Of a stretch of DNA of 64,000 nucleotides, positions 2,346 through 63,612 are shown one piece after another. How positions within the stretch are numbered: the stretch's first letter is position 1; the number at the start of each line of letters is the position of its first letter. The position numbers and the translations under genes are program-made. Under the pieces are notes generated by a model, which made no database searches, was not told where the DNA came from, and saw only the letters and a program-made list of their open reading frames with translations. Origin of the DNA: an uncultured bacterium (GTDB taxonomy: Bacteria; Fidelibacterota; Marinisomatia; Marinisomatales; UBA1611); NCBI GenBank assembly GCA_965660855.1, contig CBFIBM010000005.1, positions 65,056-129,055 on the forward strand. The letters run 5' to 3'.

Positions 2346-3821
2346 ATGTGTAGATCTAAATATTTCAAAAGCTTAGCTTTAATTTCAGTTTTTTCTTTTT
2401 TAGTCGGACAAAATACTTCCAATGATAAAAAAAGAAAAGTTTACAGAACCCAATCTGGATCAATTATAGAAGCACCTAAACCACTTTTAGATAGGGTAAT
2501 TAAAAAGACTAAATCAACTGTAAAGTCAAAAAAAGAAGATAAAAAAGCAAAAGCATTGGCACGCACGAAGATTGTTGAGACAACATATAGAAATGAATTA
2601 GATAGCTTAAAATCATCAGTCTCAGCTCTTCTAAAAGAATCTAAGTTGTTAAAAGAAAATTATGAACAAAAATTAGCTGAAAAACTCACTGACACCATAT
2701 TTGTATACACAACATTATATGATACAACTAGATCACTAGATACTACATATATATATACAAATGCAACGACTACTGTTTATGATACAACTGTAGTCATTGA
2801 TAGTATATACATAAATAACTATGATACTACCACGATTGTTCAGGCTTCATATGATACTGTCTATGTAATGGATACGACGGTTGTTGTAAATTATGATACA
2901 ACTATTATGAGAGACACCATATGGGCATTTGCTTATGATACTACAACTATTTACGATACAACTTGGGTATATGCGCATGATACAACAGTCATTAGGGATT
3001 CAATTTGGTTATTTGCAGTTGACTCCGTAAAGTCTTTTGATACTCTTGTAGTTTCAAATAATGATACGGTTACTATCCATACCTATTCAAGTAGGTTTCC
3101 TGAAAATTTTTCGCCAGATATGATAAGTGAGAATCAAAGTGCATTCCCAAAATATAAAACATTAGCCGACGCATTAAGAGCCCGGGATACAGGAGATAAA
3201 TCTGCTCAAGGTTGGATAAATCAAGCTCTAAATGCAGCAGGCGGAGACTGGAATAAAGCTGAAAAAGAATATAAAAAGTTACAAGAAGTCTACTCAACAG
3301 CTATGGTAAGAGCAATAACAAGAACTCCTAAAAACCAAAATTTTATTGGTCCTGATTTAAAATACAAAACTGTAATATTTGATACCTTAAAAATTTTGAC
3401 ATTTGATACTACACTTATTCAAGATACAGTCAAAAATTTAGTTAAACAGACTTATGTAAAATATGATACATCTATTGTGGATAAGAGAAGAGAAGTTATT
3501 GCTAACACCACCCCTCCAGGTCATGAACTCATTATTAAATATCACAGGAATGGTAGAGTTAAAGAAAGAGGGCTAATGAAAAGTAATAAAAGAAATGGCG
3601 AATGGATCCAGTATGATTTTAAGGGCATACCTCTCAGAAAATCAGTTTATGATATGGGAAGAATGACTCAAGATGAGTTAATTGTGACATCTGAAGAAAA
3701 TAATCAATCAAATCCTATGAAAAATGAATCTGATGATATAAAAAAGAAAAATAAGAAAAATAAATCCAAAGCAAAGAAAGCAAGTAACATTTTTAAATTA
3801 CCTAAATTTGGAAAAGATTAA
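2346..3821 (+). CDS. Putative secreted protein with a D-(T/S)-rich repeat region and a C-terminal MORN-variant/YwqK-like segment
   Basis: Signal-peptide-like N-terminus; repeated YDTT..DT motifs at residues ~116-242; YHRNGRVKERG...RNGEWIQYDFKG near the C-terminus; Lys-rich tail. Confidence 0.7.
   Translation: MCRSKYFKSLALISVFSFLVGQNTSNDKKRKVYRTQSGSIIEAPKPLLDRVIKKTKSTVKSKKEDKKAKALARTKIVETTYRNELDSLKSSVSALLKESKLLKENYEQKLAEKLTDTIFVYTTLYDTTRSLDTTYIYTNATTTVYDTTVVIDSIYINNYDTTTIVQASYDTVYVMDTTVVVNYDTTIMRDTIWAFAYDTTTIYDTTWVYAHDTTVIRDSIWLFAVDSVKSFDTLVVSNNDTVTIHTYSSRFPENFSPDMISENQSAFPKYKTLADALRARDTGDKSAQGWINQALNAAGGDWNKAEKEYKKLQEVYSTAMVRAITRTPKNQNFIGPDLKYKTVIFDTLKILTFDTTLIQDTVKNLVKQTYVKYDTSIVDKRREVIANTTPPGHELIIKYHRNGRVKERGLMKSNKRNGEWIQYDFKGIPLRKSVYDMGRMTQDELIVTSEENNQSNPMKNESDDIKKKNKKNKSKAKKASNIFKLPKFGKD
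2691..3071 (+). repeat. Imperfect protein-level repeat (~14 aa unit, YDTTxxxDTxxxxx) inside the 491-aa ORF
   Basis: Units include YDTTVVIDSIYINN, YDTVYVMDTTVVVN, YDTTIMRDTIWAFA, YDTTTIYDTTWVYA, HDTTVIRDSIWLFA and VDSVKSFDTLVVSN. The DNA shows recurring (t)atgatac. Confidence 0.85.
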
Positions 3822-48651: not shown

Positions 48652-48940
48652 CATTCAAAATTCCTTAAAGTAGCATAACACTATAAATTATAAAAAATAA
48701 ACCACAAAGTTTAATTTTTTTTAAACTTTTCATTTAATAAATTAGCTTTTTAAAATATAAAACTAAATATATTTAATTTATTGCATTTATAGCTTTTGAT
48801 AATTAAAAAATAATAAAAAAAATGATAATTAATTATTGTTTGTTTGATTTGAATAAAAAAAAGTTATAATGTAAGACTTCAGAGTTTTATAAAATTATTG
48901 AAATAACTAATGAAAATTAATCTACAAATAATACTATAAT

Positions 48941-49207
48941 ATGAAAAAAAATAAACTCTTAGATGAGCATCGCCATAAAATTAATTTGATTGATTATGAA
49001 ATAGTATCACTTATTGATGAAAGAATGAATATCGCATCAAATATTGGAAAAATTAAACAAAAAGATAATATCCGTATTTTTAATAAAAATAGAGAGAGAG
49101 AAATTCTTAATAATCTTAAACAAAAATCTAAATATTTATCTTACAACGAAATTGAAAAAATATATGAAATAATTTTTGAAATTTCAAAAAAAAATCAATT
49201 AAAATAA
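48941..49207 (+). CDS. Monofunctional chorismate mutase (AroQ/CM_2 type)
   Basis: L.EHR.KIN.ID.EIV.LIDER...A..IGKIK, RE.EIL, I...IFEISK..Q; adjacent to the aromatic operon. Confidence 0.88.
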   Translation: MKKNKLLDEHRHKINLIDYEIVSLIDERMNIASNIGKIKQKDNIRIFNKNREREILNNLKQKSKYLSYNEIEKIYEIIFEISKKNQLK

Positions 49208-49249
49208 TTATATTGTAGCCAAATAAGATTATTTTCATTAATATTTTAT

Positions 49250-49321
49250 ATGTATCCAAGGAAAAATTTAAATATTTATATAAGCTGGTTTTGGTATTAT
49301 AACCTAAAGGGGGCTCTTTAG
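49250..49321 (+). CDS. Aromatic-amino-acid leader peptide (23 aa, MYPRKNLNIYISWFWYYNLKGAL)
   Basis: Not in the ORF track. ATG at 49250, TGG TTT TGG TAT TAT at 49286-49300, TAG ending at 49321. It lies directly upstream of a terminator and trpE. Confidence 0.88.
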   Translation: MYPRKNLNIYISWFWYYNLKGAL

Positions 49322-49361
49322 GATAGTATTAAAATATACTTGAATAAAATTTACGAACCCC
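49303..49361 (+). promoter_or_regulatory. Attenuator switch: protector hairpin and alternative antiterminator pairing
   Basis: Perfect 7-bp stem CCTAAAG (49303-49309)/CTTTAGG (49316-49322). The enclosed GGGGCTC can alternatively pair with GAACCCC (49355-49361), the 5' arm of the terminator. Confidence 0.75.
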
Positions 49362-49384
49362 GAATCATTTCGGGGTTTTTTTTT
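49356..49384 (+). terminator. Attenuator terminator upstream of trpE
   Basis: AACCCCGAA-TCAT-TTCGGGGTT, with a continuous T9 run (49376-49384) ending 3 nt before the trpE ATG. Confidence 0.92.
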
Positions 49385-49387
49385 ATT

Positions 49388-50872
49388 ATGAATAAAAATC
49401 AATTAACATTTAAAAAATTTAAAGAATTAGCTAAAAAGCACAAGATAGTTCCTGTTTTCAAGCAAGTACTTTCAGATTTGCTTACTCCTGTTGCCGCTTG
49501 GGCACATCTTTGCAATCATTCTAAATATGGATTTATTTTGGAGTCTGTTGAAAAAGGAAATAATTATTCAAGGTTCTCTTATTTAGGTATTGATCCAAAA
49601 ACAATTATTAAGTTGGAGAATAATGTAACATTAATTGAAACAAATGGTAACCAATCAATAATAAAGGAACCGTTCATAGAGGTTATCGATAAAATTCAAA
49701 AAGAATATCAATATAAAAAGATAGAAGACCTACCTCCTTTTACAGGAGGATTAATTGGATATTTAAATTATGAAATGGTTGAACACTTCGATAATATTCC
49801 AATAAATAGTAAATCTGAATTAAACCTCCCAAAATCATTATTTATGCTTTTTGAGGATATTATAATTTTTGATCATTTAAAAGGGACTTCTATCATTTTA
49901 TCAAATATAATAATAGATAAAAAAGAAACATTATTAAATCAGTACGACCATGCCCATGAAAAGATTGATAGAATTGGTGAAAAGCTTCATTCCAGGATTG
50001 AATATCAAACACCTCGATATAACTCTAATCAAGAACTAAGTACCAACCTAAATGAAAAAGATTTTAAAAATATAGTTTTAAAAGCTAAATCATACATTGA
50101 AGAAGGGGAAATTTTTCAAGTTGTTCTTAGTAGAAAGTTTAAACAAAAAATTAACTCAGAACCTGTTACTATTTACCGTGCTCTTCGAACAATCAATCCA
50201 TCTCCCTACATGTTTCATTTGAAAGTAAATGATTTCGATATAATTGGAGCATCTCCAGAACTTATGGTCAAGATAAAGGATAGTGATATTGAGATTAGAC
50301 CTATTGCTGGGACTAGACCAAGAGGTAAGAATAAAAAGGAAGACGATTTGCTAAGTAAACAATTAATTTCAGATAAAAAAGAATTAGCTGAGCATTTAAT
50401 GTTATTAGATCTAGGTCGTAATGATGTTGGTAAAGTTTCTGAATTTGGATCTGTTAAAGTAACTGAATCAATGAAAATTGAAAAATATTCACATGTAATG
50501 CATATTGTATCTAGTATAAAAGGAAAGTTAGATAAAGATATTAGATCCTTAGATGCTCTTATCAGTGGTTTCCCAGCTGGAACTGTAACTGGTGCTCCAA
50601 AAATAAGAGCTATGGAGATTATCAATGAATTAGAGAATGAAACACGTGATATTTACTCTGGTGCTGTATGTTTTATTGATTTTAACAATAATATTAATTC
50701 TTGTATCGCAATAAGGACACTAATAATAAAAGATAAGAATGCTCACTTTCAAGCTGGAGCTGGTATAGTTTATGACTCAGATCCTTCATCAGAATATGAA
50801 GAGACACTGAATAAAGCAAAAGCAATTATCAATGCAATTAAATTTGCAGAAAATGGTTTAAGTAAAAAATGA
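49388..50872 (+). CDS. trpE: Anthranilate synthase component I
   Basis: DLLTPV, ILES, NPSPYM, GASPE, PIAGTRPRG, AEHLMLLDLGRND, GAPKIRAM. Start moved to ATG 49388 because the TTG at 49340 would read through the terminator. Confidence 0.96.
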   Translation: MNKNQLTFKKFKELAKKHKIVPVFKQVLSDLLTPVAAWAHLCNHSKYGFILESVEKGNNYSRFSYLGIDPKTIIKLENNVTLIETNGNQSIIKEPFIEVIDKIQKEYQYKKIEDLPPFTGGLIGYLNYEMVEHFDNIPINSKSELNLPKSLFMLFEDIIIFDHLKGTSIILSNIIIDKKETLLNQYDHAHEKIDRIGEKLHSRIEYQTPRYNSNQELSTNLNEKDFKNIVLKAKSYIEEGEIFQVVLSRKFKQKINSEPVTIYRALRTINPSPYMFHLKVNDFDIIGASPELMVKIKDSDIEIRPIAGTRPRGKNKKEDDLLSKQLISDKKELAEHLMLLDLGRNDVGKVSEFGSVKVTESMKIEKYSHVMHIVSSIKGKLDKDIRSLDALISGFPAGTVTGAPKIRAMEIINELENETRDIYSGAVCFIDFNNNINSCIAIRTLIIKDKNAHFQAGAGIVYDSDPSSEYEETLNKAKAIINAIKFAENGLSKK

Positions 50873-51447
50873 TTTTGATAATAGATAACTACGATTCTTT
50901 TACATATAATATTGTCCAATATGTTGGTGTAATTGACCAAAATTTATTAGTGAAGAAGAATGATAAAATTTCATGTAATGATATTAACACATTAAAACCA
51001 ACTCATATTATTATTTCACCTGGTCCTGGAAAACCTGAGAGCGCTGGAATAGCAATAGAATTAATTATTAAGTTTGGAAATCAGATTCCAATTTTTGGTA
51101 TATGCCTTGGGCATCAAGCAATAACTGTTGCCTATGGTGGAGTAGTCAAAAAATCAAATGAAATTGTCCATGGGAAAGTATCTACTATTTTTCATAATAA
51201 TTCTTCTAAAATCTATGATGGAATAAAAACAAAATTCATGGCAACAAGGTATCATTCACTCATAGCTGAAAAAGAGACCTTACCGGAAAATTTAATAATT
51301 TCATCTCATTTAAAAGATGGAACTATAATGGGAATTGAGCATCAAGATCACCCCGTATATGGAGTCCAATTTCACCCAGAATCATTTTCTACTAAAATTG
51401 GATTTCAACTTATAAAAAACTTTCTAAGTTTAAAAAAAATAAAATGA
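50869..51447 (+). CDS. trpG: Anthranilate synthase component II (glutamine amidotransferase)
   Basis: IDNYDSFTYN, SPGPG.P, GICLGHQ, RYHSL, QFHPES. Confidence 0.96.
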   Translation: MILIIDNYDSFTYNIVQYVGVIDQNLLVKKNDKISCNDINTLKPTHIIISPGPGKPESAGIAIELIIKFGNQIPIFGICLGHQAITVAYGGVVKKSNEIVHGKVSTIFHNNSSKIYDGIKTKFMATRYHSLIAEKETLPENLIISSHLKDGTIMGIEHQDHPVYGVQFHPESFSTKIGFQLIKNFLSLKKIK

Positions 51448-52439
51448 AATACTTTTTAGAAAAAATTTTACAACATCAGGATTTAACAATGTCAGAATCT
51501 TATAAATTGATGTTTTCTTTAATGTCAGGGAATAATGATGATATTGAGATTGCTTCCTTTTTAGTTGCATTTCGATCAAAAGGTGAAACCGTTGATGAGA
51601 TAACTGGTTTTGTTAGAGCTATGAGAGAAAAAATGATAAAACTTCATACCCATTCTCCAGCTATTGATATGTGTGGTACTGGTGGGGATGCCTCAGGGAC
51701 TTTTAATATCTCTACGGCTGCATCATTTATTACTGCTGGTGCTGGAGTAAAAGTAGCAAAACATGGAAACCGTTCAATGTCATCAAAGTCAGGTTCAGCT
51801 GATGTGCTTCAAGCCTTAGGAATAAGTATAAATCTTGATAAAGAAACTACATCAAGAAATATTGAAGAAATTGGCCTAGGCTTTATCTTTGCTCCTGATT
51901 ACCATCCCGCAATGAGATATGCAATAAAAGCGAGAAAATCATTAGGAATTCGCACAGTGTTTAACTTGTTGGGGCCTTTATGCAACCCTGCCGAAGTTCA
52001 ATCTCAAGCGACTGGTATTTTCAATCCAAAAATGACAAACAAAGTTGCATTAGTATTGAAGAAGTTAGGTTCGAAAAATATTATGGTTTTCTCTGGACTA
52101 GATGGACTAGATGAGATTTCAACCATTGAAGAAACAAAAATAAGTGAAATGAAAAATAGAGGTGAAATATTAACTTATAATTTTTCTTATAAAGAGCTAC
52201 GATTAAAACAATCAAAAATCAAAGATCTCATCGGTGGGTCACCTAAAAAAAATGCAACAATAATTAAGAATATACTTGAAGGTGAAAAAGGTCCGAAACG
52301 AGACATTACCTTGTTAAATGCTGCAGCAGGAATTTTTGTTGGGGAAAAAAATATCAGCTTTGAAGAAGCATTCCATAAGGCAATTGATTCATTGGATTCT
52401 TTATCTGCATTAAGTGTATTAAAGAGATTACAGTCATGA
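51444..52439 (+). CDS. trpD: Anthranilate phosphoribosyltransferase
   Basis: D.CGTGGD, NIST, KHGNRS.SS.SGSAD, RTVFNLLGPL.NPA, GLDE. Confidence 0.97.
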   Translation: MKYFLEKILQHQDLTMSESYKLMFSLMSGNNDDIEIASFLVAFRSKGETVDEITGFVRAMREKMIKLHTHSPAIDMCGTGGDASGTFNISTAASFITAGAGVKVAKHGNRSMSSKSGSADVLQALGISINLDKETTSRNIEEIGLGFIFAPDYHPAMRYAIKARKSLGIRTVFNLLGPLCNPAEVQSQATGIFNPKMTNKVALVLKKLGSKNIMVFSGLDGLDEISTIEETKISEMKNRGEILTYNFSYKELRLKQSKIKDLIGGSPKKNATIIKNILEGEKGPKRDITLLNAAAGIFVGEKNISFEEAFHKAIDSLDSLSALSVLKRLQS

Positions 52440-53197
52440 ATATTTTAGAAGAAATTATTGAAAATAAAAAAATAGAAATACAAAAATCTAGATTAGAAAT
52501 TTTACAAAAAAGAACTGATTACCGATCTCTATGTAACGCATTATTAAAATATGAATTAACTATAATAGCTGAAATCAAAATTAAATCTCCTAGTGAGGGT
52601 ATAATTAATAGTTCATTAGACCTTATCCAAATTGCAAAAGATTATGAGTCTGCTGGCGCTGATGCTTTGTCCATATTAACCGATAAGAAGTATTTTGGAG
52701 GTTCAATAGAAGTTTTAAAAGAAATAAGAGAATCGATAAACATTCCCGTTTTAAGAAAAGATTTTATAATAGATAAAAAACAAATAATTGAAGCATCTAA
52801 TGTTGGTGCTGATGCTTTCTTACTTATTGCTGATGCTCTTCCAATCGATAAAACTATAGAACTTTATAATTTTGGTATAAAGATTGGTTTAGATGTTCTT
52901 TTAGAGTTTCATAATAGAAGAAATTTAAAAAAAATTTTAAAATTACAACCTAGTATTATTGGTGTTAATTCCAGAAATTTAAGTAAAATGACTACCAGCA
53001 AGAAACACTTCAATAAAATGATTAACCTCCTTCCAACTGGATTAATAAAAGTCGCTGAGAGCGGAATAAAAACAACGGAGGATTTAAGGTATATTTCAAA
53101 ATTAGGTTATAACTCTGCATTAATTGGTACATCTCTAATGAAAACAGATAGTCCGGGTAAAGCTTTAGAAAAGTTAATAAGGTTCAGTAGGTCATGA
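52436..53197 (+). CDS. trpC: Indole-3-glycerol phosphate synthase
   Basis: IIAEIK.KSPSEG, LSILTD..YFGG, LRKDFI, GVNSRNL, VAESGI, LIGTSLM. Confidence 0.96.
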   Translation: MNILEEIIENKKIEIQKSRLEILQKRTDYRSLCNALLKYELTIIAEIKIKSPSEGIINSSLDLIQIAKDYESAGADALSILTDKKYFGGSIEVLKEIRESINIPVLRKDFIIDKKQIIEASNVGADAFLLIADALPIDKTIELYNFGIKIGLDVLLEFHNRRNLKKILKLQPSIIGVNSRNLSKMTTSKKHFNKMINLLPTGLIKVAESGIKTTEDLRYISKLGYNSALIGTSLMKTDSPGKALEKLIRFSRS

Positions 53198-53832
53198 TAC
53201 CAGTTAAGATTTGTGGAATCAAAAATATTAAGGATGCTGAAGCAGCAGTAAAACATGGTGCTAAAGCAATTGGGTTTATTTTTTTCAACAAAAGTCCCAG
53301 GTTTATATCCATTAATAATTCTATTTCAATAGCAAATTCTTTACCTAAGTCAATTAAAAAAATTGGTGTTTTTGTTAATTCTCCTCAGGACATTATTAAT
53401 TCTATTATTAAAAAAGTTAATTTGGATCTAATTCAATTACATGGAGATGAACCTGATGAATTTTGCAATTTTTTCGATATTCCAGTTATTAAAGCTTTCC
53501 AAGTTAAATCAATAAAAGATTTACAAAAAATTAAGTTATATAAAAACATCTCAGCCATATTATTGGATAATCATAATGAAAATCTTTATGGTGGGACTGG
53601 TAAAAGCTTTGACTGGAAACTATTGAATAATGTTGAATTTAAATTTCCAATTATCCTATCAGGCGGGCTAAACTCTTCAAACATCAATAATGCAATAAAT
53701 CTTGTAAAACCTAATGCAGTTGATGTTAATAGTGGAGTAGAAAATAGCCCTGGAATTAAATCTCCAAAAAAAATTAAATCTCTTTTTGACAAATTACTAT
53801 TAACTAAAACAACTGGATATTATTTTGAATAA
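53194..53832 (+). CDS. trpF: Phosphoribosylanthranilate isomerase
   Basis: [44 protein letters not shown]. Confidence 0.96.
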
Positions 53833-55033
53833 TTTTTTTGAAAAATATAATTTCCCCGATGAAAAAGGACATTTTGAAAAATATGGTGGGAAATACGTAC
53901 CTGAGACTCTTATTCCAGTTTTAAATGAACTTGAAAGTGAATATTTAAAAGCAAAAAAAGATATTTCTTTCAAAATTGAGCTTGCAGATTTATTAAAAAA
54001 CTATAGTGGCAGAAAAACGCCATTATATTTTGCTAAAAATATAAGCACGGAATTAGGGTTTAACATTTGGCTAAAAAGAGAAGATCTTAACCATACAGGT
54101 GCGCACAAAATTAATAGTTCATTAGGACAAATATTGCTCGCAAAAAGAATGAATAAGAAACGAATTATAGCAGAAACAGGAGCTGGGCAACATGGAGTAG
54201 CCACAGCGACAGCCGCAGCTTTATTTGGTTTAAAATGTATTATTTATATGGGAAAAGAAGATATCAAGAGACAAAAACTAAATGTTTTCAGAATGCATAT
54301 TATGGGAGCAGAAATTCGTGAAGTCAATAGCGGGAGTGCAACACTCAAAGATGCAACCAATGAGGCAATTAGAGATTGGGTCAGTAATGCTGATTCTACA
54401 TATTATATTATCGGGTCGACAGTAGGCCCTCATCCCTATCCTATGATTGTTAGAGATTTTCAATCTATTATTGGAGAGGAAACAAAATATCAGTTTCATA
54501 AGCAAACACAATTGAAACTTCCAGATAGATTGATTGCATGTGTTGGCGGTGGATCAAATGCATTAGGTTTATTTTACCCATTTTTGAAAGATAATGTAAA
54601 AATTTGTGGTGTTGAGGCTTCAGGTAAAGGATTAAATACAAATCAACATGCAGCTACATTGACAAAAGGTACCTTTGGGGTTCTTCATGGAGCAGCTAGT
54701 ATAGTTTTACAGAACCATGATGGACAAATTAAATTACCTCACTCTGTATCAGCAGGTCTTGATTATCCTGGTGTTGGTCCAGAACATAGTTTTCTAAAAT
54801 ATAAAAATAGAATTAAATATTATTCCGCAACTGATAGAGAGGCACTTAATGCATTCATCTGGCTCTCAAAAGAAGAAGGAATTATCCCTGCTCTAGAAAC
54901 TTCTCATGCCTTAGCATTTCTCAGAAAACAAAATAATGATATCTCTAGAAATGAAAATGTAATCGTCAATCTGTCTGGTAGAGGCGATAAAGATGTAAAC
55001 ACTGTAGCAAAAGCTTTGGATTTTCAAATATGA
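53825..55033 (+). CDS. trpB: Tryptophan synthase beta chain
   Basis: [53 protein letters not shown]. Confidence 0.98.
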
Positions 55034-55797
55034 ATAGAATCTTAGCATTATTTTCTAGAAAAGAAAAACGTGTAATCCCATTCATAACAGCCGGTTACCC
55101 CAATATAGATAGTACCGTAGATCTTGTTCTTGCAGCTGAAAATGCTGGTGCATCTATGATAGAAATCGGTATGCCATTTTCTGATCCTCAAGCAGATGGA
55201 CCGATTATTCAATATGCCAATGAAGTAGCTCTTGAAAATGGAATTACAATAAAAAAAATATTTAATCAAGTAAAATATATCAGGTTAAAGTCAAACATTC
55301 CTATTGCGCTGATGGGATATTACAATCCTATATTAAGAATGGGGCTTGAAAAATTTACGGAAAATTGTGTTGCTTCTGGAGTAGATGGTTTAATTCTACC
55401 CGATTTACCTTTTGATGAGGCAGGTCCATTTTGCAAAATATTAAAGCAAAATAATATTTGTCCAATTTTATTGGTAGCACCTAACACCTCAAATAAAAGG
55501 ATACTAAAAATATCAAAGTTAGCTGATGGTTTAATTTATGCTGTAAGCATTCTTGGAATTACAGGTGATGCTTTAAATGATAAAACATATTTAAAAACAT
55601 ATTTAAAAAGAATTCGCAAACACAGTTCTTCATCATTCATTGTTGGTTTTGGAATTAAATCAAATGATGATGTTATTTGGTTTAATCAATATTCTGATGG
55701 AGCTGTTGTTGGAAGTGTAATAATGAAAGAATTAAAGAATTCTAAAAATCCAAAAAATACAATCAAGGTATTAATTGAAAATTTAAGGAGAGAATAA
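55030..55797 (+). CDS. trpA: Tryptophan synthase alpha chain
   Basis: [47 protein letters not shown]. Confidence 0.97.
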
Positions 55798-56369
55798 TGA
55801 GAACTATAGGAATTCAAGGAGGTAAAGGAAGTTTTTCTGAAAATGCTGCTCAAAAATTTATTATTGATCATGGATTAAAAGATACAAGCATTAAATATCT
55901 TATTTCCTCTGAAATTGTTTTATCATCAGTTGAAAATGGCTCAGTAGATTTTGGAGTAATTGCTATGGAGAATGCTCAAGGAGGTGTAGTCATTGAAAGT
56001 GTAAAAGCTCTATCTAGGCATAATTGTGATATAATTGAAATGTTTCATATTCCTATAAAACAAAATTTGATAGGGTTAAAAAATACAAAAGTAGGTGATA
56101 TAACAGAGATCCATTCTCATCAACAAGCATTAAAACAATGTAAAGATTATTTAAGTGATAACTTTTGGACAAGACCTCTAATAGAAGAGGATGATACTGC
56201 TGAGGCTGCAAGAAGACTATCTGAAGGCAAGTTTCCAAAAACTGCAGCCGTAATTGCTAATGAATATTGTGCAGAACTTTATGGATTAGAAATACTTCAA
56301 TCTAGTATACACGATCTAAAAAATAACCTTACATTATTTTTAGGTGTTAGGAAGTTGGATTTAACATGA
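55797..56369 (+). CDS. pheA: Prephenate (or arogenate) dehydratase, catalytic domain only
   Basis: IQGGKGSFSE.AA, G...MEN...G.V, SHQQALKQC, DTAEAA, I.D..NN.T.F. The protein stops before any ACT domain. Confidence 0.88.
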   Translation: MRTIGIQGGKGSFSENAAQKFIIDHGLKDTSIKYLISSEIVLSSVENGSVDFGVIAMENAQGGVVIESVKALSRHNCDIIEMFHIPIKQNLIGLKNTKVGDITEIHSHQQALKQCKDYLSDNFWTRPLIEEDDTAEAARRLSEGKFPKTAAVIANEYCAELYGLEILQSSIHDLKNNLTLFLGVRKLDLT

Positions 56370-57112
56370 ATAGTGTTGGTATTATTGGATTTGGAAGGTT
56401 TGGGAAAGTGCTAGCGCATATTTTACAAAAAGGTTTTGAAGTAAATATTTACGATATTAACCATAATGAAAGTTTTGGAAATATTAATTTTGTATCCTCA
56501 AAAAATATAATAAAAGAAAAAACAATTTTTGTATCCGTTCCCATCAGAGAGTTCGAAAAGGTAATAAATGATATTTCACCCAATATTAATGAGGGGACAA
56601 CAATTATTGATGTATGCTCTGTTAAGAAATATCCAATTGATATAATGAAAAAACTTTTGCCAGAAAATATCGGATTCATTGGAACGCACCCAATGTTTGG
56701 TCCAGATTCTTACGAAGTTAATAAAAACTTGAAAATGGTAATGCATAAATCACATGATTATAATTTATGTTATAATTTTTGGAAAACATTTTTTAAGGAT
56801 CAAAATATACAAATTATTGAAATGGAGCCAGATCAGCATGATAGGCTAGCTGCTCAGACTCAAGGTGTCACACATTTTTTAGGTAGAATTTTAGAAGAAT
56901 ATGGCATAAATAAAACAAAAATTGATACTCAAGGTTTTAGAGACCTCTTGGATTTAGTTGATCAAACATGCAATGATTCATGGGAGCTTTATTCAGATTT
57001 ACAGCAATATAACCCATATACTAAAAATATGATATCAAAATTGAAAAAATCTGTTAACCATTTAGAAAAGCAGCTAAAGGATACAAATAGTAATGAAATG
57101 GAAATTAAATAG
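56366..57112 (+). CDS. tyrA: Prephenate/arogenate dehydrogenase (TyrA family)
   Basis: GIIGFGRFG, DVCSVK, THPMFGP, HDRLAA.TQ..TH. Confidence 0.9.
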   Translation: MNSVGIIGFGRFGKVLAHILQKGFEVNIYDINHNESFGNINFVSSKNIIKEKTIFVSVPIREFEKVINDISPNINEGTTIIDVCSVKKYPIDIMKKLLPENIGFIGTHPMFGPDSYEVNKNLKMVMHKSHDYNLCYNFWKTFFKDQNIQIIEMEPDQHDRLAAQTQGVTHFLGRILEEYGINKTKIDTQGFRDLLDLVDQTCNDSWELYSDLQQYNPYTKNMISKLKKSVNHLEKQLKDTNSNEMEIK

Positions 57113-58445
57113 TTGGCGAAATAAAAGAATTAAGCATATGCCCACATACCCAGATAATTCAAAATTATCCATTGTAGAAAAAACATTGAAAACCTTCCCG
57201 CCTTTAGTTTTTGCAGGTGAGGTAAGATCTTTAAAAAAAAAATTGAGTGAAATCTCCGAAGGAAATGGTTTTTTACTCCAAGGTGGAGATTGTGCAGAGA
57301 GCTTTTCAGAATTTAATGCAGATAATATTCGTGATACTTTTAGAGTAACATTACAAATGGCGACTATTTTAACATCTGTAATAAAAATGCCTGTGGTAAA
57401 AATTGGAAGAATAGCTGGTCAATTTGCGAAGCCTAGATCTTCCACACATGAAACTAAAAATGGACATACTTTTCCTAGCTATGCAGGAGATATCATTAAT
57501 GATATAAAATTTGAAAAAGAAAAACGAATACCGGATCCAGAAAGAATGTTAAAAGCTTATTCTCAGGCTGCCTCTACTTTAAATTTATTGAGAGCTTTTG
57601 CAGAAGGTGGCTATGCAGATTTGAAACATGTTCAATCATGGAACATGGGTTTTGTTAAAAATGGTCCTCAGGGTGATCGATACAGACACCTTGCTGAAAA
57701 AATTCAAGAGAATTTAAGTTTTATGGAAGCTCTTGGAATAAATTCAAGTAATACTCCACAATTAAAACAAGTTCAGTATTATACCAGCCACGAATCCCTT
57801 CTTTTACCATATGAAGAAGCATTGACTCGAATAGACTCTACGACTGGTAAGGTTTATAATACGTCTGCACATTTTTTATGGATAGGTGATCGAACTAGGT
57901 TTAAAGGTAGTGCGCATATTGAATTTTGTAAAGGAATCGAAAACCCATTAGGAATTAAATGTGGTCCTACCTTAAAACCAGATGATTTAATTGAATTAAT
58001 AGATATTTTAAACCCAAAAAATGAATCAGGAAAAATTACATTAATAACTCGATTTGGTTCACAAAATATTGATCGTTACTTACCTAAACTTATAAGAAAA
58101 ATTGAAGAGCATGATAAATCAGTTGTCTGGTCTTGCGACCCCATGCATGGCAATACAATAAAAAATAAAAATGGAATTAAGACAAGACCTTTTGAAAATA
58201 TAATTGATGAAGTAATTAAAAATATTCAGATACATAAATCTGAGAATTCTAGAGCAAATGGTATTCATCTTGAAATGACTGGTCAAAATATTACTGAATG
58301 CACAGGTAGTCTTGAAAAAATATCAGACTCCAACTTGTCGGATAGATACAGAACGCATTGCGACCCTCGATTAAATGCCAATCAAGCTATTGAGCTTGCC
58401 TTCTTAATTTCTAATGAACTTAAAAGTAATTTAAATGAAAATTAA
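57093..58445 (+). CDS. Class II (plant/actinobacterial-type) DAHP synthase
   Basis: PPLVFAGE, LLQGGDCAESF, GRIAGQFAKPRS, SHESLLL.YE, WIGDRTR, CDPMHGNT, HLEMTG..ITEC, CDPRLN. Confidence 0.96.
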   Translation: MKWKLNSWRNKRIKHMPTYPDNSKLSIVEKTLKTFPPLVFAGEVRSLKKKLSEISEGNGFLLQGGDCAESFSEFNADNIRDTFRVTLQMATILTSVIKMPVVKIGRIAGQFAKPRSSTHETKNGHTFPSYAGDIINDIKFEKEKRIPDPERMLKAYSQAASTLNLLRAFAEGGYADLKHVQSWNMGFVKNGPQGDRYRHLAEKIQENLSFMEALGINSSNTPQLKQVQYYTSHESLLLPYEEALTRIDSTTGKVYNTSAHFLWIGDRTRFKGSAHIEFCKGIENPLGIKCGPTLKPDDLIELIDILNPKNESGKITLITRFGSQNIDRYLPKLIRKIEEHDKSVVWSCDPMHGNTIKNKNGIKTRPFENIIDEVIKNIQIHKSENSRANGIHLEMTGQNITECTGSLEKISDSNLSDRYRTHCDPRLNANQAIELAFLISNELKSNLNEN

Positions 58446-59685
58446 TGGATCCATTACATTCCCTGGAGATAAATCTATATCTCATAGAGCTATTATTTTT
58501 GCTTCTTTATGTAATGGAAAATCAATCATAAAAAATTTATCAGATGGTAAAGATGTACAATCAACAATTAAATGTTTACAGCAATGTGGAATTAAAATTG
58601 AGCAACATAAAAATATTGGTACAATTGTTTATGGTTCAGAATTAAAAGATCCTAAAGAAAAACTCGATTGCGGAAATTCAGGTACAACAACTAGGTTACT
58701 CATTGGCTTATTGGCTGGGAAAGGAATTAATGCAACATTTATTGGAGATAAATCATTATCCAAAAGACCAATGAATAGAGTGTTAATACCTTTAAAAAAA
58801 ATGGGGCTAAACTACAACTCTAATAATGGAAAATTACCTGTGAAAATTTACAAAAGTATTTTATCCAATGAGAGTCACGTATTAGAAATTTCTAGTGCAC
58901 AAATTAAATCAGCTATTTTACTAGCAAGTTTAAATTCTAAGGGAGTAACTTTAATTTCTGAACCAAATAAATCAAGAGATCACACAGAAATTTTATTGAA
59001 ATATTTTGGTTCAAACATATCTCTAAAGAATCGAAAAATAACTTTTGAAAAAGTTTATGAAAGGTTTAAACCTTTTAATATTAAAATACCTGGAGATCCT
59101 TCCTCTGCATCATTTTTTGGTGCTGCGGCGGCTATTCTTCCAAATTCAAAATTACATTTAAAATCAATTTTACTTAACCCCACAAGAATTGGATTTTTTG
59201 AAATTCTTAGTACTATGGGTGCAAAAGTAAGTATTAAAAAGAAATCAACTATTCTTGGAGAAGTAATTGGAGATATTACAATACAATATTTCCAATTACG
59301 TTCAATAAATATTAGGAAATCACAAATCCCAACTGTTATCGACGAAATTCCAATTCTTGCCCTCATAGCAACCCAAGCAAAAGGTAGAACAGTTGTCTCA
59401 GGAGCTAATGAACTTAGATATAAAGAATGTGACAGAATTCATGCAATCTGCACTAACTTAAAAAATATGGGAGCTAATATTACTGAAAAAGATGATGGTT
59501 TCATCATTATAGGTCCTACAAAATTAAAAGCAACAAATATTAAAACTTATGATGATCATAGAATAGCTATGTCTTTCACCATTGCAAACTTATTATTAGG
59601 TAAACAGAATAAATTAGATAACCTAGATTGCGTTTCGATCTCCTACCCTAACTTTTATAAAATTTTAAATTCAATATCCTCATGA
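58435..59685 (+). CDS. aroA: 3-phosphoshikimate 1-carboxyvinyltransferase (EPSP synthase, class II-like)
   Basis: PGDKSISHRA, DCGNSGTT.R, SAQIKSA, SRDHTE, NPTR, IDEIP, ELR.KE.DRI, DHRIAM. Confidence 0.97.
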   Translation: MKINGSITFPGDKSISHRAIIFASLCNGKSIIKNLSDGKDVQSTIKCLQQCGIKIEQHKNIGTIVYGSELKDPKEKLDCGNSGTTTRLLIGLLAGKGINATFIGDKSLSKRPMNRVLIPLKKMGLNYNSNNGKLPVKIYKSILSNESHVLEISSAQIKSAILLASLNSKGVTLISEPNKSRDHTEILLKYFGSNISLKNRKITFEKVYERFKPFNIKIPGDPSSASFFGAAAAILPNSKLHLKSILLNPTRIGFFEILSTMGAKVSIKKKSTILGEVIGDITIQYFQLRSINIRKSQIPTVIDEIPILALIATQAKGRTVVSGANELRYKECDRIHAICTNLKNMGANITEKDDGFIIIGPTKLKATNIKTYDDHRIAMSFTIANLLLGKQNKLDNLDCVSISYPNFYKILNSISS

Positions 59686-60482
59686 AAAAATATGCCGTAA
59701 TAGGAGATCCAATAGAACATAGCTTAAGTCCGTTTCTTCATAGATATATTTATAAGAAAATTGGAATTAAAGCAGAGTATCAAAGAGTAAACGTCAAATC
59801 TTTAAAACTCGAAGAATTTGTTTTAACCAATTCCTTAAATGGTTTTAATGTAACAATTCCTCATAAAATTCATATTATAAATTATTTGGATGAAATAGAT
59901 GAAACTGCCAAAATACTAAATTCTGTAAATTGTGTTTTTAATAACAAAGGATATAATACAGACTGGCTAGGACTAAAAAGAGCACTTCATAAAAATAACC
60001 TAATTTTAGAAAACAAAGATTGTCTTATCCTTGGCTCTGGAGGGGTTTCTAGAGCAATCATTTATGCATTAATTAAAGAAAATATAAATACTATATCAAT
60101 ATTAAATAGAAATTTAACTCAAAAAGAGGAGTTAGAAATTTGGATCCATAAACTTTTACCTAAAAATAAACCTAATAATAAGCCAAACGTGATTATAAAT
60201 TGTACACCAGTTGGTATGCGGCCAATATCTGATAAAATTCCATTTGATTTAAATATATTTTCAGATGATCAATTAATCATTGATACAATATATAACCCAT
60301 ATGAAACTCAACTTATCAAAACTGCAAAAAATAGTGGTGCTAAAATACTAAATGGATTAGATATGTTTATTTTCCAGGCAATTGAGACTGTGAATATTTG
60401 GATGGGAGAAGATATAACTGAGCAGCTAAACTTTAATAATTTAAAAAAGGAGTTGGAATCGCAATTATGCTTTCAAAATTAA
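59682..60482 (+). CDS. aroE: Shikimate dehydrogenase
   Basis: IGDPIEHSLSP, NVTIPHK, GYNTD, GSGG, INCTPVGM, D.IYNP.ET, GLDMFIFQA. Confidence 0.95.
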   Translation: MKKYAVIGDPIEHSLSPFLHRYIYKKIGIKAEYQRVNVKSLKLEEFVLTNSLNGFNVTIPHKIHIINYLDEIDETAKILNSVNCVFNNKGYNTDWLGLKRALHKNNLILENKDCLILGSGGVSRAIIYALIKENINTISILNRNLTQKEELEIWIHKLLPKNKPNNKPNVIINCTPVGMRPISDKIPFDLNIFSDDQLIIDTIYNPYETQLIKTAKNSGAKILNGLDMFIFQAIETVNIWMGEDITEQLNFNNLKKELESQLCFQN

Positions 60483-61627
60483 CATTTTTAACCTCTGGAG
60501 AATCACATGGAAAAGGACTACTTGGTATAATAGACGGTGTACCATACGGATTAGAATTAACTGAGGACTACATAAGATACCATTTATCAAGAAGACAAAA
60601 GGGTTATGGCCGGGGTGGTCGTATGAAAATTGAAAAAGATTATGCTGAAATCTATTCCGGTATAAGACATGGGTATACCTTAGGCTCCCCAATAGGCTTA
60701 TTAATAAAAAATAAAGACTGGGAGAATTGGAAAAAAAAAATGGCAATAGAAAAACTAGATAGTCCAATTAAAAAAGTTACTTTACCCCGTCCCGGTCATG
60801 CAGATCTTGCAGGAGTTTTAAAATATGGTTTTGATGATATTCGAAATGTACTAGAACGCTCCAGTGCTCGAGAAACTACAATGAGAGTTGCATTGGGGTC
60901 TATCTGTAGGAGGTTGCTCGAAGAATTAGGCATCCATGTTGCTAGTAGAGTCGTACAAATACATGATTTAATTGATGTGAGTGACATCCCTAATGGAATA
61001 TCAACAATAGAATTAAATAAAATTGCTGATAAATCTGAAGTGAGATGTTTAGATAAAGATATTGAGTTAAAAATGATGGAAAAAATTGATGAAGCTAAAT
61101 CATCTGGTGATTCTGTTGGTGGTATTTTTGAAATTATTGCAACTGGGTTACCGTATGGCTTGGGATCATACACCCAATGGGATAAAAAATTGCAGGCGAA
61201 AATTGCAGCACTCTTAATGAGTGTTAATGCTTATAAAGCTTTTGAAATTGGTAGTGGTTTTCATAGTGGTACACAATTTGGAAGTGAAATCCATGATGAA
61301 ATTGGATGGGATGGTAAAAATTTTACGCGCTTCTCAAACAATGCGGGTGGTATTGAAGGTGGAATGTCGAACGCTCAACCTCTAATTTTAAGATTAGCTA
61401 TGAAACCAATACCTACTTTAATAAAATCTCTAAGATCTATAGATATAAAAACTAAAATTCCTAAAGATGCTCACAAAGAACGTACTGATTCATGTGCGGT
61501 TCCAGCTGCCTCAATAATCGCTGAATCAATGCTATGTTTTGTTCTGGCAGATACATTATTAGATAAGTTTGGTGGTGATTCAATTGAACAATTAAAAAAG
61601 CATATGAAAGCAACTGCTACTTATTAA
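60467..61627 (+). CDS. aroC: Chorismate synthase
   Basis: TSGESHG, RRQ.GYGRGGRM, PRPGHAD, LERSSARET, NNAGGIEGG, MKPIPTL. Confidence 0.97.
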   Translation: MLSKLTFLTSGESHGKGLLGIIDGVPYGLELTEDYIRYHLSRRQKGYGRGGRMKIEKDYAEIYSGIRHGYTLGSPIGLLIKNKDWENWKKKMAIEKLDSPIKKVTLPRPGHADLAGVLKYGFDDIRNVLERSSARETTMRVALGSICRRLLEELGIHVASRVVQIHDLIDVSDIPNGISTIELNKIADKSEVRCLDKDIELKMMEKIDEAKSSGDSVGGIFEIIATGLPYGLGSYTQWDKKLQAKIAALLMSVNAYKAFEIGSGFHSGTQFGSEIHDEIGWDGKNFTRFSNNAGGIEGGMSNAQPLILRLAMKPIPTLIKSLRSIDIKTKIPKDAHKERTDSCAVPAASIIAESMLCFVLADTLLDKFGGDSIEQLKKHMKATATY

Positions 61628-61628
61628 A

Positions 61629-62123
61629 ATGTATTATTTGACAGGTATGATGGGGACTGGAAAAACTACAATTGGAGAATTATTAGCTCTGAATCTAAAA
61701 CTTCCATTCACAGATTTAGATAAGAAAATTGAAGAAAAATGTAAAAGAACAATTGCTGATTTATTTTTGACAGAGAATGAAAATTATTTTAGAAAATTGG
61801 AGTCTAATACTTTACATGATTCATCCTTGTCTGGTGTTGTATCTTGCGGAGGTGGTATTTTAGAACTCAAAAGGAATTGTGATTATTTAATGGATGCTGG
61901 TATAGTAATTTTTCTACATACCTCAACTGATGAAATTTATAGAAGGATAATAAAATCTAATAGTAGACCTCTTTTGAATACTGCAAACAAAAAAAAAACT
62001 ATAGAAGCTATTTGGGAAAAAAGAAAAGAAAAGTACAATAAATATTGTCATTATAAAATTAAAACAGATAATAAAACTATTGATGATATAGTTGAAGAGA
62101 TAAAAACACATATAAAAAAATGA
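61629..62123 (+). CDS. aroK: Shikimate kinase
   Basis: GMMGTGKTT, DLD, FR.LE, SCGGG, RPLL. Confidence 0.95.
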   Translation: MYYLTGMMGTGKTTIGELLALNLKLPFTDLDKKIEEKCKRTIADLFLTENENYFRKLESNTLHDSSLSGVVSCGGGILELKRNCDYLMDAGIVIFLHTSTDEIYRRIIKSNSRPLLNTANKKKTIEAIWEKRKEKYNKYCHYKIKTDNKTIDDIVEEIKTHIKK

Positions 62124-63184
62124 AAACTATACATTTACCACTCAAAACAAATTCTTATAATATTTATATTGAAAATAATTTATTAAATAATTTGAAAAAG
62201 GTATTAAGGAACGATCCTATAGATAAAGTCTTAATTATTTCTCAATTTAATATAATGGAATTGTTTGGTTTTAAACTTATAAAATATTTAAAAATTTTAG
62301 AATATAAAGTTGAATATATTACCCTACCAATTGGAGAAGCTGCAAAAAGTATAAATGAATATAATAGAAGTATTGAGCAAATGATTGAACTTGATTGCGA
62401 TAGATCAACATTAATTTTTGCGCTTGGTGGAGGAGTTGTTGGAGATGTCGCAGGGTTTATCGCATCTACATTTATGCGAGGAATTTCATATTATCAAATA
62501 CCAACCACATTACTATCAATGGTGGATTCTTCCGTTGGTGGAAAAACAGGCTTAAATACACCATTAGGTAAAAATTTAATTGGTTCAATTTATCAACCTA
62601 GAGGGGTTATCATCGATCCTACCCTCTTAAATAGTTTACCAAAAGAAGAAATTAATTCAGGTTTAGGTGAAATAATAAAATATGGCGCAATTAGAGATTT
62701 AAATCTTTTAAAAAGCCTAAATTTATGGTTAGATGATATAAAAACTTTACCTTATGAAGAAGCAATCTATGATTGTCTTAAAATTAAAGCTGATATTGTT
62801 GCACAAGATGAAAAAGAAACTAGTATTAGAAAAATATTAAATTTTGGTCATACTATTGGACATGCTTTAGAATCTCATTTTGGATATAATAAATTAAAGC
62901 ATGGTGAAGCAGTCTCATATGGAATGCTTTGCTCAACTAAAATTTCTAAAGACTTAAATTATATATCTAAAAATGACGAACAATTTCTATCAGATTTGAT
63001 AAAAAAATTACCACTTCCTAATATAAATTCTCCAGATATAGAAACCCTATTTCCTTATATACTTAATGATAAGAAGGTCTTTGATGGTAAAATTCATTTT
63101 ATCTTATTAGAAAGATTAGGAAAAGCATTTATAAATACCAATGTGACAAAGGAGATAATAAAAAAATCTTTGAGGGCAATATGA
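62120..63184 (+). CDS. aroB: 3-dehydroquinate synthase
   Basis: GE..K, ALGGGVVGDVAGF, PTTLLSMVDSSVGGKTG, KNLIG, LNFGHTIGHA, HGEAV, DKK. Confidence 0.97.
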   Translation: MKTIHLPLKTNSYNIYIENNLLNNLKKVLRNDPIDKVLIISQFNIMELFGFKLIKYLKILEYKVEYITLPIGEAAKSINEYNRSIEQMIELDCDRSTLIFALGGGVVGDVAGFIASTFMRGISYYQIPTTLLSMVDSSVGGKTGLNTPLGKNLIGSIYQPRGVIIDPTLLNSLPKEEINSGLGEIIKYGAIRDLNLLKSLNLWLDDIKTLPYEEAIYDCLKIKADIVAQDEKETSIRKILNFGHTIGHALESHFGYNKLKHGEAVSYGMLCSTKISKDLNYISKNDEQFLSDLIKKLPLPNINSPDIETLFPYILNDKKVFDGKIHFILLERLGKAFINTNVTKEIIKKSLRAI

Positions 63185-63612
63185 AGAAATACTTAATTAT
63201 TAATGGTCCCAACCTAAATCTCCTAGGATCGAGAAATCCTGAAATATACGGGAGAGAAAGCCTTCAAGATATTGAAAAATGGCTAAATATAAAAATTAAT
63301 AATAAAGATGTAAAAATATATTGGTACCACTCAAATCATGAAGGCAAAATAATCGATAGAATTCAAAGGGCCACTAATGAGAAAATAAATGGTATAATAT
63401 TAAATGCTGGCGCGTTGACTCATTATTCATATGCAATACGTGATGCAATATCAGCTTTTAAATTACCAGTGGTAGAAGTTCACCTGAGCGATATTAATAA
63501 ACGCGAAAAGTTTAGAAGTATTTCAGTGATCAAAGATGTTTGTATCAAACAGATATCTGGGCTAGGAAAGAATAGTTATCTAGAGGGTTTTAAAATACTC
63601 GAATCACTTTAA
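63181..63612 (+). CDS. aroQ: Type II 3-dehydroquinate dehydratase
   Basis: INGPNLNLLG.R.PEIYG, SNHEG, NAGALTHYS, EVHLS...REKFR. Confidence 0.96.
   Translation: MKKYLIINGPNLNLLGSRNPEIYGRESLQDIEKWLNIKINNKDVKIYWYHSNHEGKIIDRIQRATNEKINGIILNAGALTHYSYAIRDAISAFKLPVVEVHLSDINKREKFRSISVIKDVCIKQISGLGKNSYLEGFKILESL

Follow-up and report, generated by a model that had tools for sequence, protein, structure and literature searches.

The trpL-trpEDCBA and pheL-pheA operons of Escherichia coli (Rfam leader families RF00513 and RF01859) are each headed by a leader that senses one amino acid and controls one branch of aromatic amino acid synthesis, and in Bacillus subtilis a trp operon is inserted in a six-gene aro operon. 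Here we describe a 16-gene block of shikimate, Trp, Phe and Tyr pathway genes, preceded by a short leader open reading frame (ORF), in the draft genome of an uncultured marine bacterium of the phylum Fidelibacterota (Marinimicrobia, SAR406-type; class Marinisomatia, order Marinisomatales, UBA1611; GenBank assembly GCA_965660855.1). The window, that is, the whole stretch of DNA analysed, comprises 64,000 nucleotides (nt) of contig CBFIBM010000005.1 (positions 65,056 to 129,055), of which the block occupies positions 49388-63612 on the + strand. The assembly, split over 81 contigs, totals 2.09 Mb at 84% completeness; absences reported below, for this genome and for relatives, mean that the queries used gave no match in draft genomes. 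We consider it likely that the block is a single lineage-conserved aromatic amino acid operon, attenuated via its leader.

Aromatic supraoperons are known, and passages of Song et al. (2005; PMC1173090) deal with them. The aro/trp supraoperon of B. subtilis resembles the present block in having a trp operon among common-pathway genes, tyrA and other aromatic genes, on one strand and in overlapping units. The B. subtilis supraoperon has 12 genes and several promoters, and its trp part is under the RNA-binding protein TRAP, whereas here there are 16 genes (17 with the chorismate mutase gene), all seven shikimate steps are encoded, the trp genes come first, and the candidate control element is a ribosome-read leader peptide, no TRAP-type or T-box element having been found. 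A supraoperon described in PMC1173090 (Table 7 and text) likewise unites genes for Phe, Tyr, Trp and the common pathway behind a predicted attenuator; it has a partial common pathway with alternative first two steps, a chorismate mutase fused to pheA and the trp genes last, in contrast to the complete classical seven steps, the free-standing chorismate mutase before the attenuator and the leading trp genes found here.

The proposed attenuator shares with E. coli trpL and pheL a short ORF with end-product codons, a terminator and a competing antiterminator, and differs from them in that Trp, Phe and Tyr codons are mixed and stand at the head of three branches plus the common pathway. In Corynebacterium glutamicum, the aroR leader (Phe-Tyr-Phe) controls aroF, the DAHP synthase gene, by attenuation (PMC11802643, citing Neshat et al., 2014); as described in the relevant part of that source, it too has mixed aromatic codons in a leader controlling a common-pathway gene. 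Unlike the leader studied here, aroR has no Trp codon and heads a small operon, and the trp operon has its own trpL. Our literature searches found no description of the present arrangement for Marinimicrobia/SAR406, and as far as those searches show no aromatic supraoperon of greater completeness has been described. As supraoperons and leader-peptide attenuators are each familiar, what is new here is the unusual completeness, and the understanding of neither is changed.

A compact block of 16 aromatic pathway genes

The block consists of 16 back-to-back ORFs, each matching a named family in NCBIfam or Pfam, which bears out the claim of a preliminary description of this DNA, made from the sequence alone, that 16 named aromatic genes lie on one strand:

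49388..50872, + strand: trpE, anthranilate synthase component I (TIGR00564, 561 bits against a cut-off of 517.7)
50869..51447, + strand: trpG, glutamine amidotransferase component II (TIGR00566, PF00117)
51444..52439, + strand: trpD, anthranilate phosphoribosyltransferase (TIGR01245, 380 bits)
52436..53197, + strand: trpC, indole-3-glycerol phosphate synthase (PF00218, 237 bits)
53194..53832, + strand: trpF, phosphoribosylanthranilate isomerase (NF002298, 245 bits against a cut-off of 215)
53825..55033, + strand: trpB, tryptophan synthase beta, TTG start (TIGR00263, 604 bits)
55030..55797, + strand: trpA, tryptophan synthase alpha (TIGR00262, 236 bits)
55797..56369, + strand: pheA, prephenate dehydratase, 190 aa (PF00800 over residues 4-186)
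56366..57112, + strand: tyrA-family prephenate/arogenate dehydrogenase, 248 aa (PF02153, 63.9 bits)
57093..58445, + strand: class II DAHP synthase (TIGR01358, 645 bits against a cut-off of 614.7; PF01474)
58435..59685, + strand: aroA, EPSP synthase (TIGR01356, 397 bits)
59682..60482, + strand: aroE, shikimate dehydrogenase (TIGR00507, 207.5 bits against a cut-off of 200.2)
60467..61627, + strand: aroC, chorismate synthase (TIGR00033, 392 bits)
61629..62123, + strand: aroK, shikimate kinase (PF01202, 144 bits)
62120..63184, + strand: aroB, 3-dehydroquinate synthase (TIGR01357, 359 bits)
63181..63612, + strand: aroQ, type II 3-dehydroquinate dehydratase, the last gene (TIGR01088, 172 bits)

Fourteen of the 15 junctions overlap, nine by 4 nt (ATGA), one by 1 nt (TAATG) and the others by 8, 20, 11 and 16 nt, and the remaining one, between aroC and aroK, is a 1-nt gap, exactly the pattern first described (14 overlaps, mostly ATGA, and one 1-nt gap). 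The 8-nt overlap requires the TTG start of trpB; alignments with TrpB of relatives begin at residue 1 and so support this start. Gaps of at most 1 nt are found at 15/15 junctions of the block, against at most 404/1147 (35%) same-strand pairs of neighbouring long ORFs elsewhere in the assembly, an upper bound obtained by taking the longest ORF each time, so the block is more compact than expected by chance. The further statement that no room is left for promoters or terminators holds for the spacers, which are lacking at all 15 junctions, and overlooks promoters inside coding sequences.

All seven shikimate steps are encoded in the block, as the preliminary description had held. Its claim for the branch enzymes did not stand in full, and it was wrong to name an aromatic aminotransferase as the only missing activity, since the chorismate mutase (CM) gene also lies outside the 16 genes, upstream of the attenuator:

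48941..49207, + strand: chorismate mutase (AroQ/CM_2, 88 aa; PF01817, 3.2e-18)

This is the sole PF01817 match in the assembly, in which the CM gene and all 16 genes of the block are single-copy. The aromatic aminotransferase is indeed not in the block; candidates elsewhere are HisC (above its NCBIfam cut-off), an AspC-like enzyme and others.

At its other end, the block runs into a convergent gene, the 3' end of aroQ overlapping the 3' end of this neighbour by 9 nt (63604-63612); the neighbour's product has a type IX secretion system sorting tail. No terminator-like hairpin closing the operon was seen at the end of aroQ, and the end of the window, 388 nt past aroQ, is also the end of the contig.

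A leader with Trp, Phe and Tyr codons and a terminator abutting trpE

Between the divergent asnB-like gene upstream and trpE, the window holds the following elements besides the CM gene:

48655..48940, + strand: AT-rich spacer from the asnB-like gene to the CM gene, the likely location of the promoter
49250..49321, + strand: leader ORF of 23 codons, MYPRKNLNIYISWFWYYNLKGAL followed by a stop codon, with the codons W-F-W-Y-Y at 49286-49300
49309..49313, + strand: GGGGG at the 3' end of the leader ORF, proposed 5' strand of an antiterminator, pairing with CCCC at 49358-49361
49355..49384, + strand: intrinsic terminator, a 10-bp G+C-rich stem (49355-49364/49369-49378) and a T9 run

The leader ORF starts 42 nt past the stop codon of CM, and inspection by eye showed nothing resembling a Shine-Dalgarno sequence ahead of its ATG. 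A distance of 10 nt separates the hairpin from the trpE ATG, and because the T9 run stops only 3 nt short of that ATG, transcription entering from upstream must cross the terminator. The leader's Phe and Tyr codons stand 6.4 kb upstream of pheA and tyrA. The three-amino-acid leader invoked in the preliminary description corresponds to this 23-codon ORF with Trp, Phe and Tyr codons and the terminator, at 49250-49384.

To place a ribosome on the leader, we masked the RNA that it would cover and folded the transcript up to the terminator loop. In the unconstrained fold, the codon region pairs with downstream sequence and the terminator forms; with no ribosome, a hairpin of -14.6 sequesters the codon region. 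Masking at any of codons 11-17 (I-S-W-F-W-Y-Y) lets GGGG capture the 5' arm of the terminator, with -11.0 kcal/mol (-7.1 at Y17), and masking at codon 18 or beyond, or at the stop codon, leaves the 5' arm uncaptured.

We found homologues of the leader ORF in 31 further loci, their aromatic codons showing synonymous changes, which gives 32 loci across the class in all, and structural comparisons were made on 23 aligned leaders from related loci. In these 23 sequences the terminator is a consensus structure with compensatory changes in 5/8 pairs, its G+C-rich stem and a run of 6-9 T are kept in every one, and the T-run ends within 30 nt of the first gene in 16. The GGG and CCC elements are near-invariant although the peptide varies; in one locus (L105) the three strands are GAGG, CCUC and GAGG. 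With the mask at the first regulatory codon the 5' arm was captured in 22/23 loci, at the last regulatory codon in 17/23, and with the ribosome at the stop codon in 3/23. Shuffle-controlled folding gave capture in 23/23 at the first codon of the aromatic run, with all 23 energies below the shuffle means. The classical attenuation model thus fits well, with moderate support for the antiterminator.

Known RNA elements did not account for the region. Rfam gave no gathering-level hit in the window or in 5 related loci and no T-box hit, and the trpB motif (RF04312) reached 32.4 against 59 bits in the window, covering mostly the terminator. This motif is described, in the part of PMC11109978 concerned with it, for Firmicutes and Fusobacteria. 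On these Rfam searches we rejected a riboswitch, a T-box and a known leader family; the sub-threshold matches, such as those to the trpB motif, Phe_leader and Trp_leader, rest mainly on the terminator. A crude scan of the genome for other leader-peptide attenuators (short ORF, amino acid run and terminator) returned the aromatic leader and three unconvincing hits only.

Leader codons track the gene content of the operon

The aromatic codons of the leader vary with the genes that the operon carries. All 23 leaders of operons with trp genes (22 complete loci and one cut by a contig end) have at least one Trp codon, mixed with Phe or Tyr codons, and 22/23 leaders before trpE have both Phe and Tyr codons. 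Among operons with neither trp genes nor a trp remnant, Trp codons occur in 0/7 leaders, and there the leader stands directly before pheA. Two further loci (L081 and L087) carry recent trp deletions and leaders that retain two Trp codons. What is left of the trp genes are stubs, 110-150 nt from the start of trpE and 64-95 nt from the end of trpA (L081:2855-2967, L087:~3180-3422); because the breakpoints differ, these are two separate deletions. Neither trpA nor a true trpB was found elsewhere in the L081 and L087 genomes (95% and 92% complete), and this query also found no trpA anywhere in genomes G013, G018, G007, G040, G025 and G035, of which G013 and G007 are the remnant genomes. The codons for Phe behave in a similar way in one case: genome G034 (99% complete), in which no prephenate dehydratase (PDT) gene was found anywhere, has a leader with two Trp, no Phe and four Tyr codons, the only leader without a Phe codon. 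In G031, pheA is truncated and Phe codons are still present in the leader.

On a tree of AroC, AroA, AroB and PheA (27 rows, quick search; for L085 and L094 the leader is on a different contig of their genome), we counted no fewer than 5 changes, on well-supported branches, in whether the operon carries trp genes. Of 5 independent pairs of loci, 4 differed in Trp-codon state in the same direction as in trp presence and 0 in the opposite direction; the remaining pair, which involves a remnant, showed no difference. The pattern of codons and content would be hard to explain unless the leader controls genes far downstream, and it is the observation that best supports a single transcript. In particular, the leader probably controls pheA, tyrA and the aro genes, because the Phe codon is absent where pheA is gone and the pattern would otherwise be pointless.

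The block is conserved across the class

Conservation was assessed in 41 relatives, the window's own genome being counted among them. Of these, 18 have a class II DAHP synthase, 24 have AroC and about 18 have a true TrpB by our queries, and 17/41 genomes, seven of them at least 92% complete, gave none of the three. Because so many genomes lack all three markers, the pathway seems, within the limits of these queries, to be present or absent as a whole.

For gene order we drew on a phylum sample of 301 genomes and compared the tables of places of trpA and pheA. Among the matches listed, trpA is followed directly by pheA in 29/40 trpA-bearing genomes of the window's own order, with four more having a permuted order, in 19/23 trpA-bearing genomes of other orders in the class, and in 0/13 genomes of other classes with both places listed. 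The block is a lineage trait, conserved across this class of the phylum. Synteny in related genomes, which the preliminary description had named as a check, thus came out in its favour, as the order recurs on independent contigs of dozens of genomes, single-contig genomes included. It takes three forms:

Full form: [CM]-leader-trpEGDCFBA-pheA-tyrA-DAHPS-aroAECKBQ (DAHPS, DAHP synthase gene)
Form without trp genes: [CM]-leader-pheA-tyrA-DAHPS-aroAECKBQ
Permuted form, in a family with 0.7-1.1 Mb genomes: trpEGDCFBA-CM-DAHPS-aroAECKBQ-pheA-tyrA, or the same without trp

In 19/23 loci a CM_2 gene precedes the leader ORF at a distance of 11-59 nt. In L097, the leader and terminator stand upstream of CM.

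Proposed mechanism and alternative explanations

Building on the established gene identities, junctions, leader ORF, terminator, conservation and match between codons and gene content, we propose a mechanism in which a promoter, ribosome stalling, read-through and a single transcript would act as follows. Transcription would start upstream of the CM gene, pass through CM and the 23-codon leader ORF, and meet the terminator that abuts trpE. When charged Trp-, Phe- and Tyr-tRNA are all ample, the ribosome would reach the leader stop codon and cover GGGGG, so that the terminator forms and the 16 genes are off. Scarcity of even one of these tRNAs would make the ribosome stall at W-F-W-Y-Y, so that GGGGG could base-pair with CCCC in the 5' arm of the terminator. 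With this antiterminator formed, the polymerase would read on into trpEGDCFBA-pheA-tyrA-DAHP synthase-aroAECKBQ, and the overlapping stop and start codons would pass ribosomes from gene to gene, so that the read-through mRNA is presumably translated as a unit. The preliminary description had likewise proposed one transcript under the leader, with the terminal branches first; the Phe and Tyr codons placed far ahead of pheA and tyrA, the tracking of operon content by leader codons and the terminator abutting trpE speak for it indirectly, and the notion of an undivided transcript has to be tempered by the possibility of internal promoters.

A broader interpretation, which we offer only tentatively and rate at somewhat below even chances, joins these elements together. 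In this class the pathway would be a detachable module with one three-input leader, in which a shortage of Trp, of Phe or of Tyr would release all 16 genes through one terminator; CM would be placed deliberately before the switch, attenuation instead of feedback inhibition would be the main control because the branch enzymes (PheA with only a PDT domain, TyrA short) have lost their allosteric domains, and the sensor would be re-tuned as the module shrinks, losing Trp codons once the trp genes are deleted and Phe codons where pheA is missing.

Several results weigh against a single attenuated operon. The window's antiterminator (-11.0) is weaker than its terminator (-15.4), shuffled spacers capture at least 4 nt of the 5' arm in 56% of trials, and the column-wise pairing of the antiterminator is 74.4%, against 77.8% for a register slid by -1, with 22/500 shuffles reaching 74.4%; because the G and C runs permit slippage, this column-wise covariation is not decisive. 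The Rfam Trp_leader (RF00513) and Phe_leader (RF01859) models stay below threshold, with 19.2 against 41 and 21.7 against 55 bits. The sign test on the independent pairs gives p = 0.125, which is not significant, with too few pairs. Six metatranscriptome runs hold part of the stretch, and four of them, examined as short unstranded contigs, cover 28, 29, 20 and 27 of 30 bins. Their contigs bridge at least 6/15 junctions (tyrA/DAHPS, aroA/aroE, aroE/aroC, aroC/aroK, aroK/aroB and aroB/aroQ), with DNA carry-over a possibility; one contig also joins aroQ to the convergent downstream gene, and for that reason the bridging is not proof of co-transcription. The RNA contigs show presence in RNA libraries and nothing more.

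If the block were a co-linear cluster and not one regulatory unit, promoters inside coding sequences (for example in trpA, tyrA or aroC) would drive the phe/tyr and common-pathway genes, and the attenuator would serve mainly trp. We regard this as rather unlikely, though it is the most serious of the alternatives. Promoters can lie within genes, and a scan for sigma-70-type promoters is uninformative (90 sites against 94 expected) and hence no help against them; internal promoters are conceivable because relatives have an aroC-aroK spacer, of 22-317 nt in 14/24 loci measured, and some have acquired additional genes within the operon, at the aroG2-aroA or the aroA-aroE junction. Coverage by RNA contigs is no poorer for the aro half than for the trp half, a comparison in which contig depth cannot rank genes. 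Such promoters would leave unexplained the Phe and Tyr codons of nearly all leaders before trpE, the loss of the Phe codon in the pheA-less genome and the Trp-codon-free leader of the same kind directly before pheA in the 7 trp-less loci, and the window itself offers no spacer at any junction. An action of the leader mainly on translation, with the hairpin hindering ribosome entry at trpE and ribosomes from CM or the leader reinitiating, seems improbable to us. It would suit the closeness of hairpin and T-run to the trpE start (3 nt), the short distance from the CM stop to the leader ATG, a spacing fit for reinitiation in the window as across the 19 loci with CM upstream, and the lack of a visible Shine-Dalgarno-like sequence before that ATG; against it stand the G+C-rich stem and T-run, an intrinsic-terminator signature present in all 23 aligned leaders, and the GGGG:CCCC pairing, which would dissolve the terminator stem as in classical attenuators. 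The translational and transcriptional modes are not mutually exclusive.

It is very improbable that the hairpin is simply the terminator of a monocistronic CM gene, with a fortuitous WFWYY ORF and a block driven by its own promoter. The terminator does come after the CM gene and the Rfam leader families do fall below threshold, but 3 nt between T-run and trpE leave no room for a promoter, an ORF with aromatic codons stands at the same place in 32 loci class-wide with codons that track gene content, and in L097 the leader and terminator precede CM. Finally, we give a negligible probability to an assembly or binning artefact of a metagenome-derived genome. The draft state of the assembly and the contig end shortly after aroQ would allow for one; the recurrence of the same order in dozens of genomes, single-contig ones among them, rules it out, and of the sequence words sampled from the stretch 84-97% are present in four DNA runs. 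A single operon attenuated via the leader therefore remains our preferred explanation of the locus.

Branch enzymes and the use of chorismate

The PheA protein is a catalytic PDT domain alone, with neither a CM nor an ACT domain. Full-length NCBIfam PheA models score below their cut-offs on this 190-aa protein, as do the NCBIfam prephenate dehydrogenase models on the 248-aa TyrA-family protein. As PheA and TyrA both lack ACT domains, feedback at the level of the branches is suggested to be weak. In the CM, residues R11, R28, K39, R51, E52 and Q86 match canonical AroQ in the alignment. In mycobacteria, a small CM forms a regulatory complex with class II DAHP synthase; a complex of this kind was considered for the present enzymes and set aside. 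Relatives that have a class I-beta DAHP synthase retain the same CM.

TrpE is the sole enzyme of the chorismate-binding family in the 84%-complete assembly, in which we found no homologues of PabB, MenF or EntC, no MqnA and no chorismate lyase (UbiC). Chorismate therefore appears, from this gene inventory, to serve only Trp, Phe and Tyr. If so, a single three-amino-acid sensor for the common pathway would be sensible, and the ability of relatives to drop the whole block would be explained.

The locus may be of use beyond this genome. A multi-input leader whose codons track gene content over several independent losses provides rare comparative evidence that such a leader is tuned to the genes it controls, and, if the re-tuning of the sensor with the shrinkage of the module is true, it would amount to a replicated natural experiment in attenuators tracking their cargo. 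SAR406-type bacteria are abundant in the dark ocean, and the block could act as a marker for aromatic amino acid prototrophy versus auxotrophy among them. It is also a compact 14-kb natural cassette for the entire aromatic pathway.

Variation of the block among relatives

Between tyrA and aroA, the window (57093-58445) and many other loci carry a class II DAHP synthase gene, and in further loci the gene at this place encodes a class I-beta enzyme that has a ferredoxin-like domain at its N terminus. Compared across L099-L102, L118-L120, L125 and L116, the last of which has the slot empty, the variation has the look of one enzyme being replaced in place by a non-homologous one. The nearest genes to the window's DAHP synthase in named genomes are from Candidatus Neomarinimicrobiota (68-74% identity), and the nearest class II enzymes outside the phylum are alphaproteobacterial, including Pelagibacteraceae (57-63% identity). 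A second DAHP synthase in the window's genome was considered and rejected: the sole PF00793 match in the assembly is a 270-aa ORF that is, by size alone, a KDO8P synthase candidate.

Insertions of other kinds were seen in a few relatives. A Fic-domain gene lies between the DAHP synthase gene and aroA in two loci (L082:11504-12601 and L083:7343-8449), and a PemK/MazF-type toxin gene between aroE and aroC in one of them (L083:4536-4874); these look like selfish genes within a biosynthetic operon. One family carries a class I/II aminotransferase gene (382 aa) between aroA and aroE (L093:8593-9741 and L096:6111-7256), which provides within the operon the step that is unlinked in the window genome. 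No close counterpart of this aminotransferase was found in the window genome, the best match being 28% identical.

The smallest genomes of the order (L121, L122 and L097) keep the whole block in permuted form, with a leader that starts with GTG and reads W-K-W-Y-F, and the leader of a sister genome of this family without trp genes reads F-F-D-Y-Y-Y-F. In the seventh trp-less genome, G037 (L104, G037:C1:168500-179500), there is a separate, distant trp operon (33-52% identity), preceded, instead of by a leader peptide, by an ORF that by eye resembles a Trp-repressor family protein.

All four RNA runs leave bin 49207-49713 nearly without coverage. Contigs of three of these runs match up to 49209, just past the CM stop codon, and then share one unrelated sequence; related strains may differ downstream of CM.

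In another class of the phylum, locus L124 (G041:C42) has a trp operon that runs on into CM and class I-beta DAHP synthase genes, with pheA on another contig. Its leader reads ..F-N-Y-S-F-N-Y-W-W-Y-Y.., and mixed aromatic leaders therefore reach beyond the class that has the full block.

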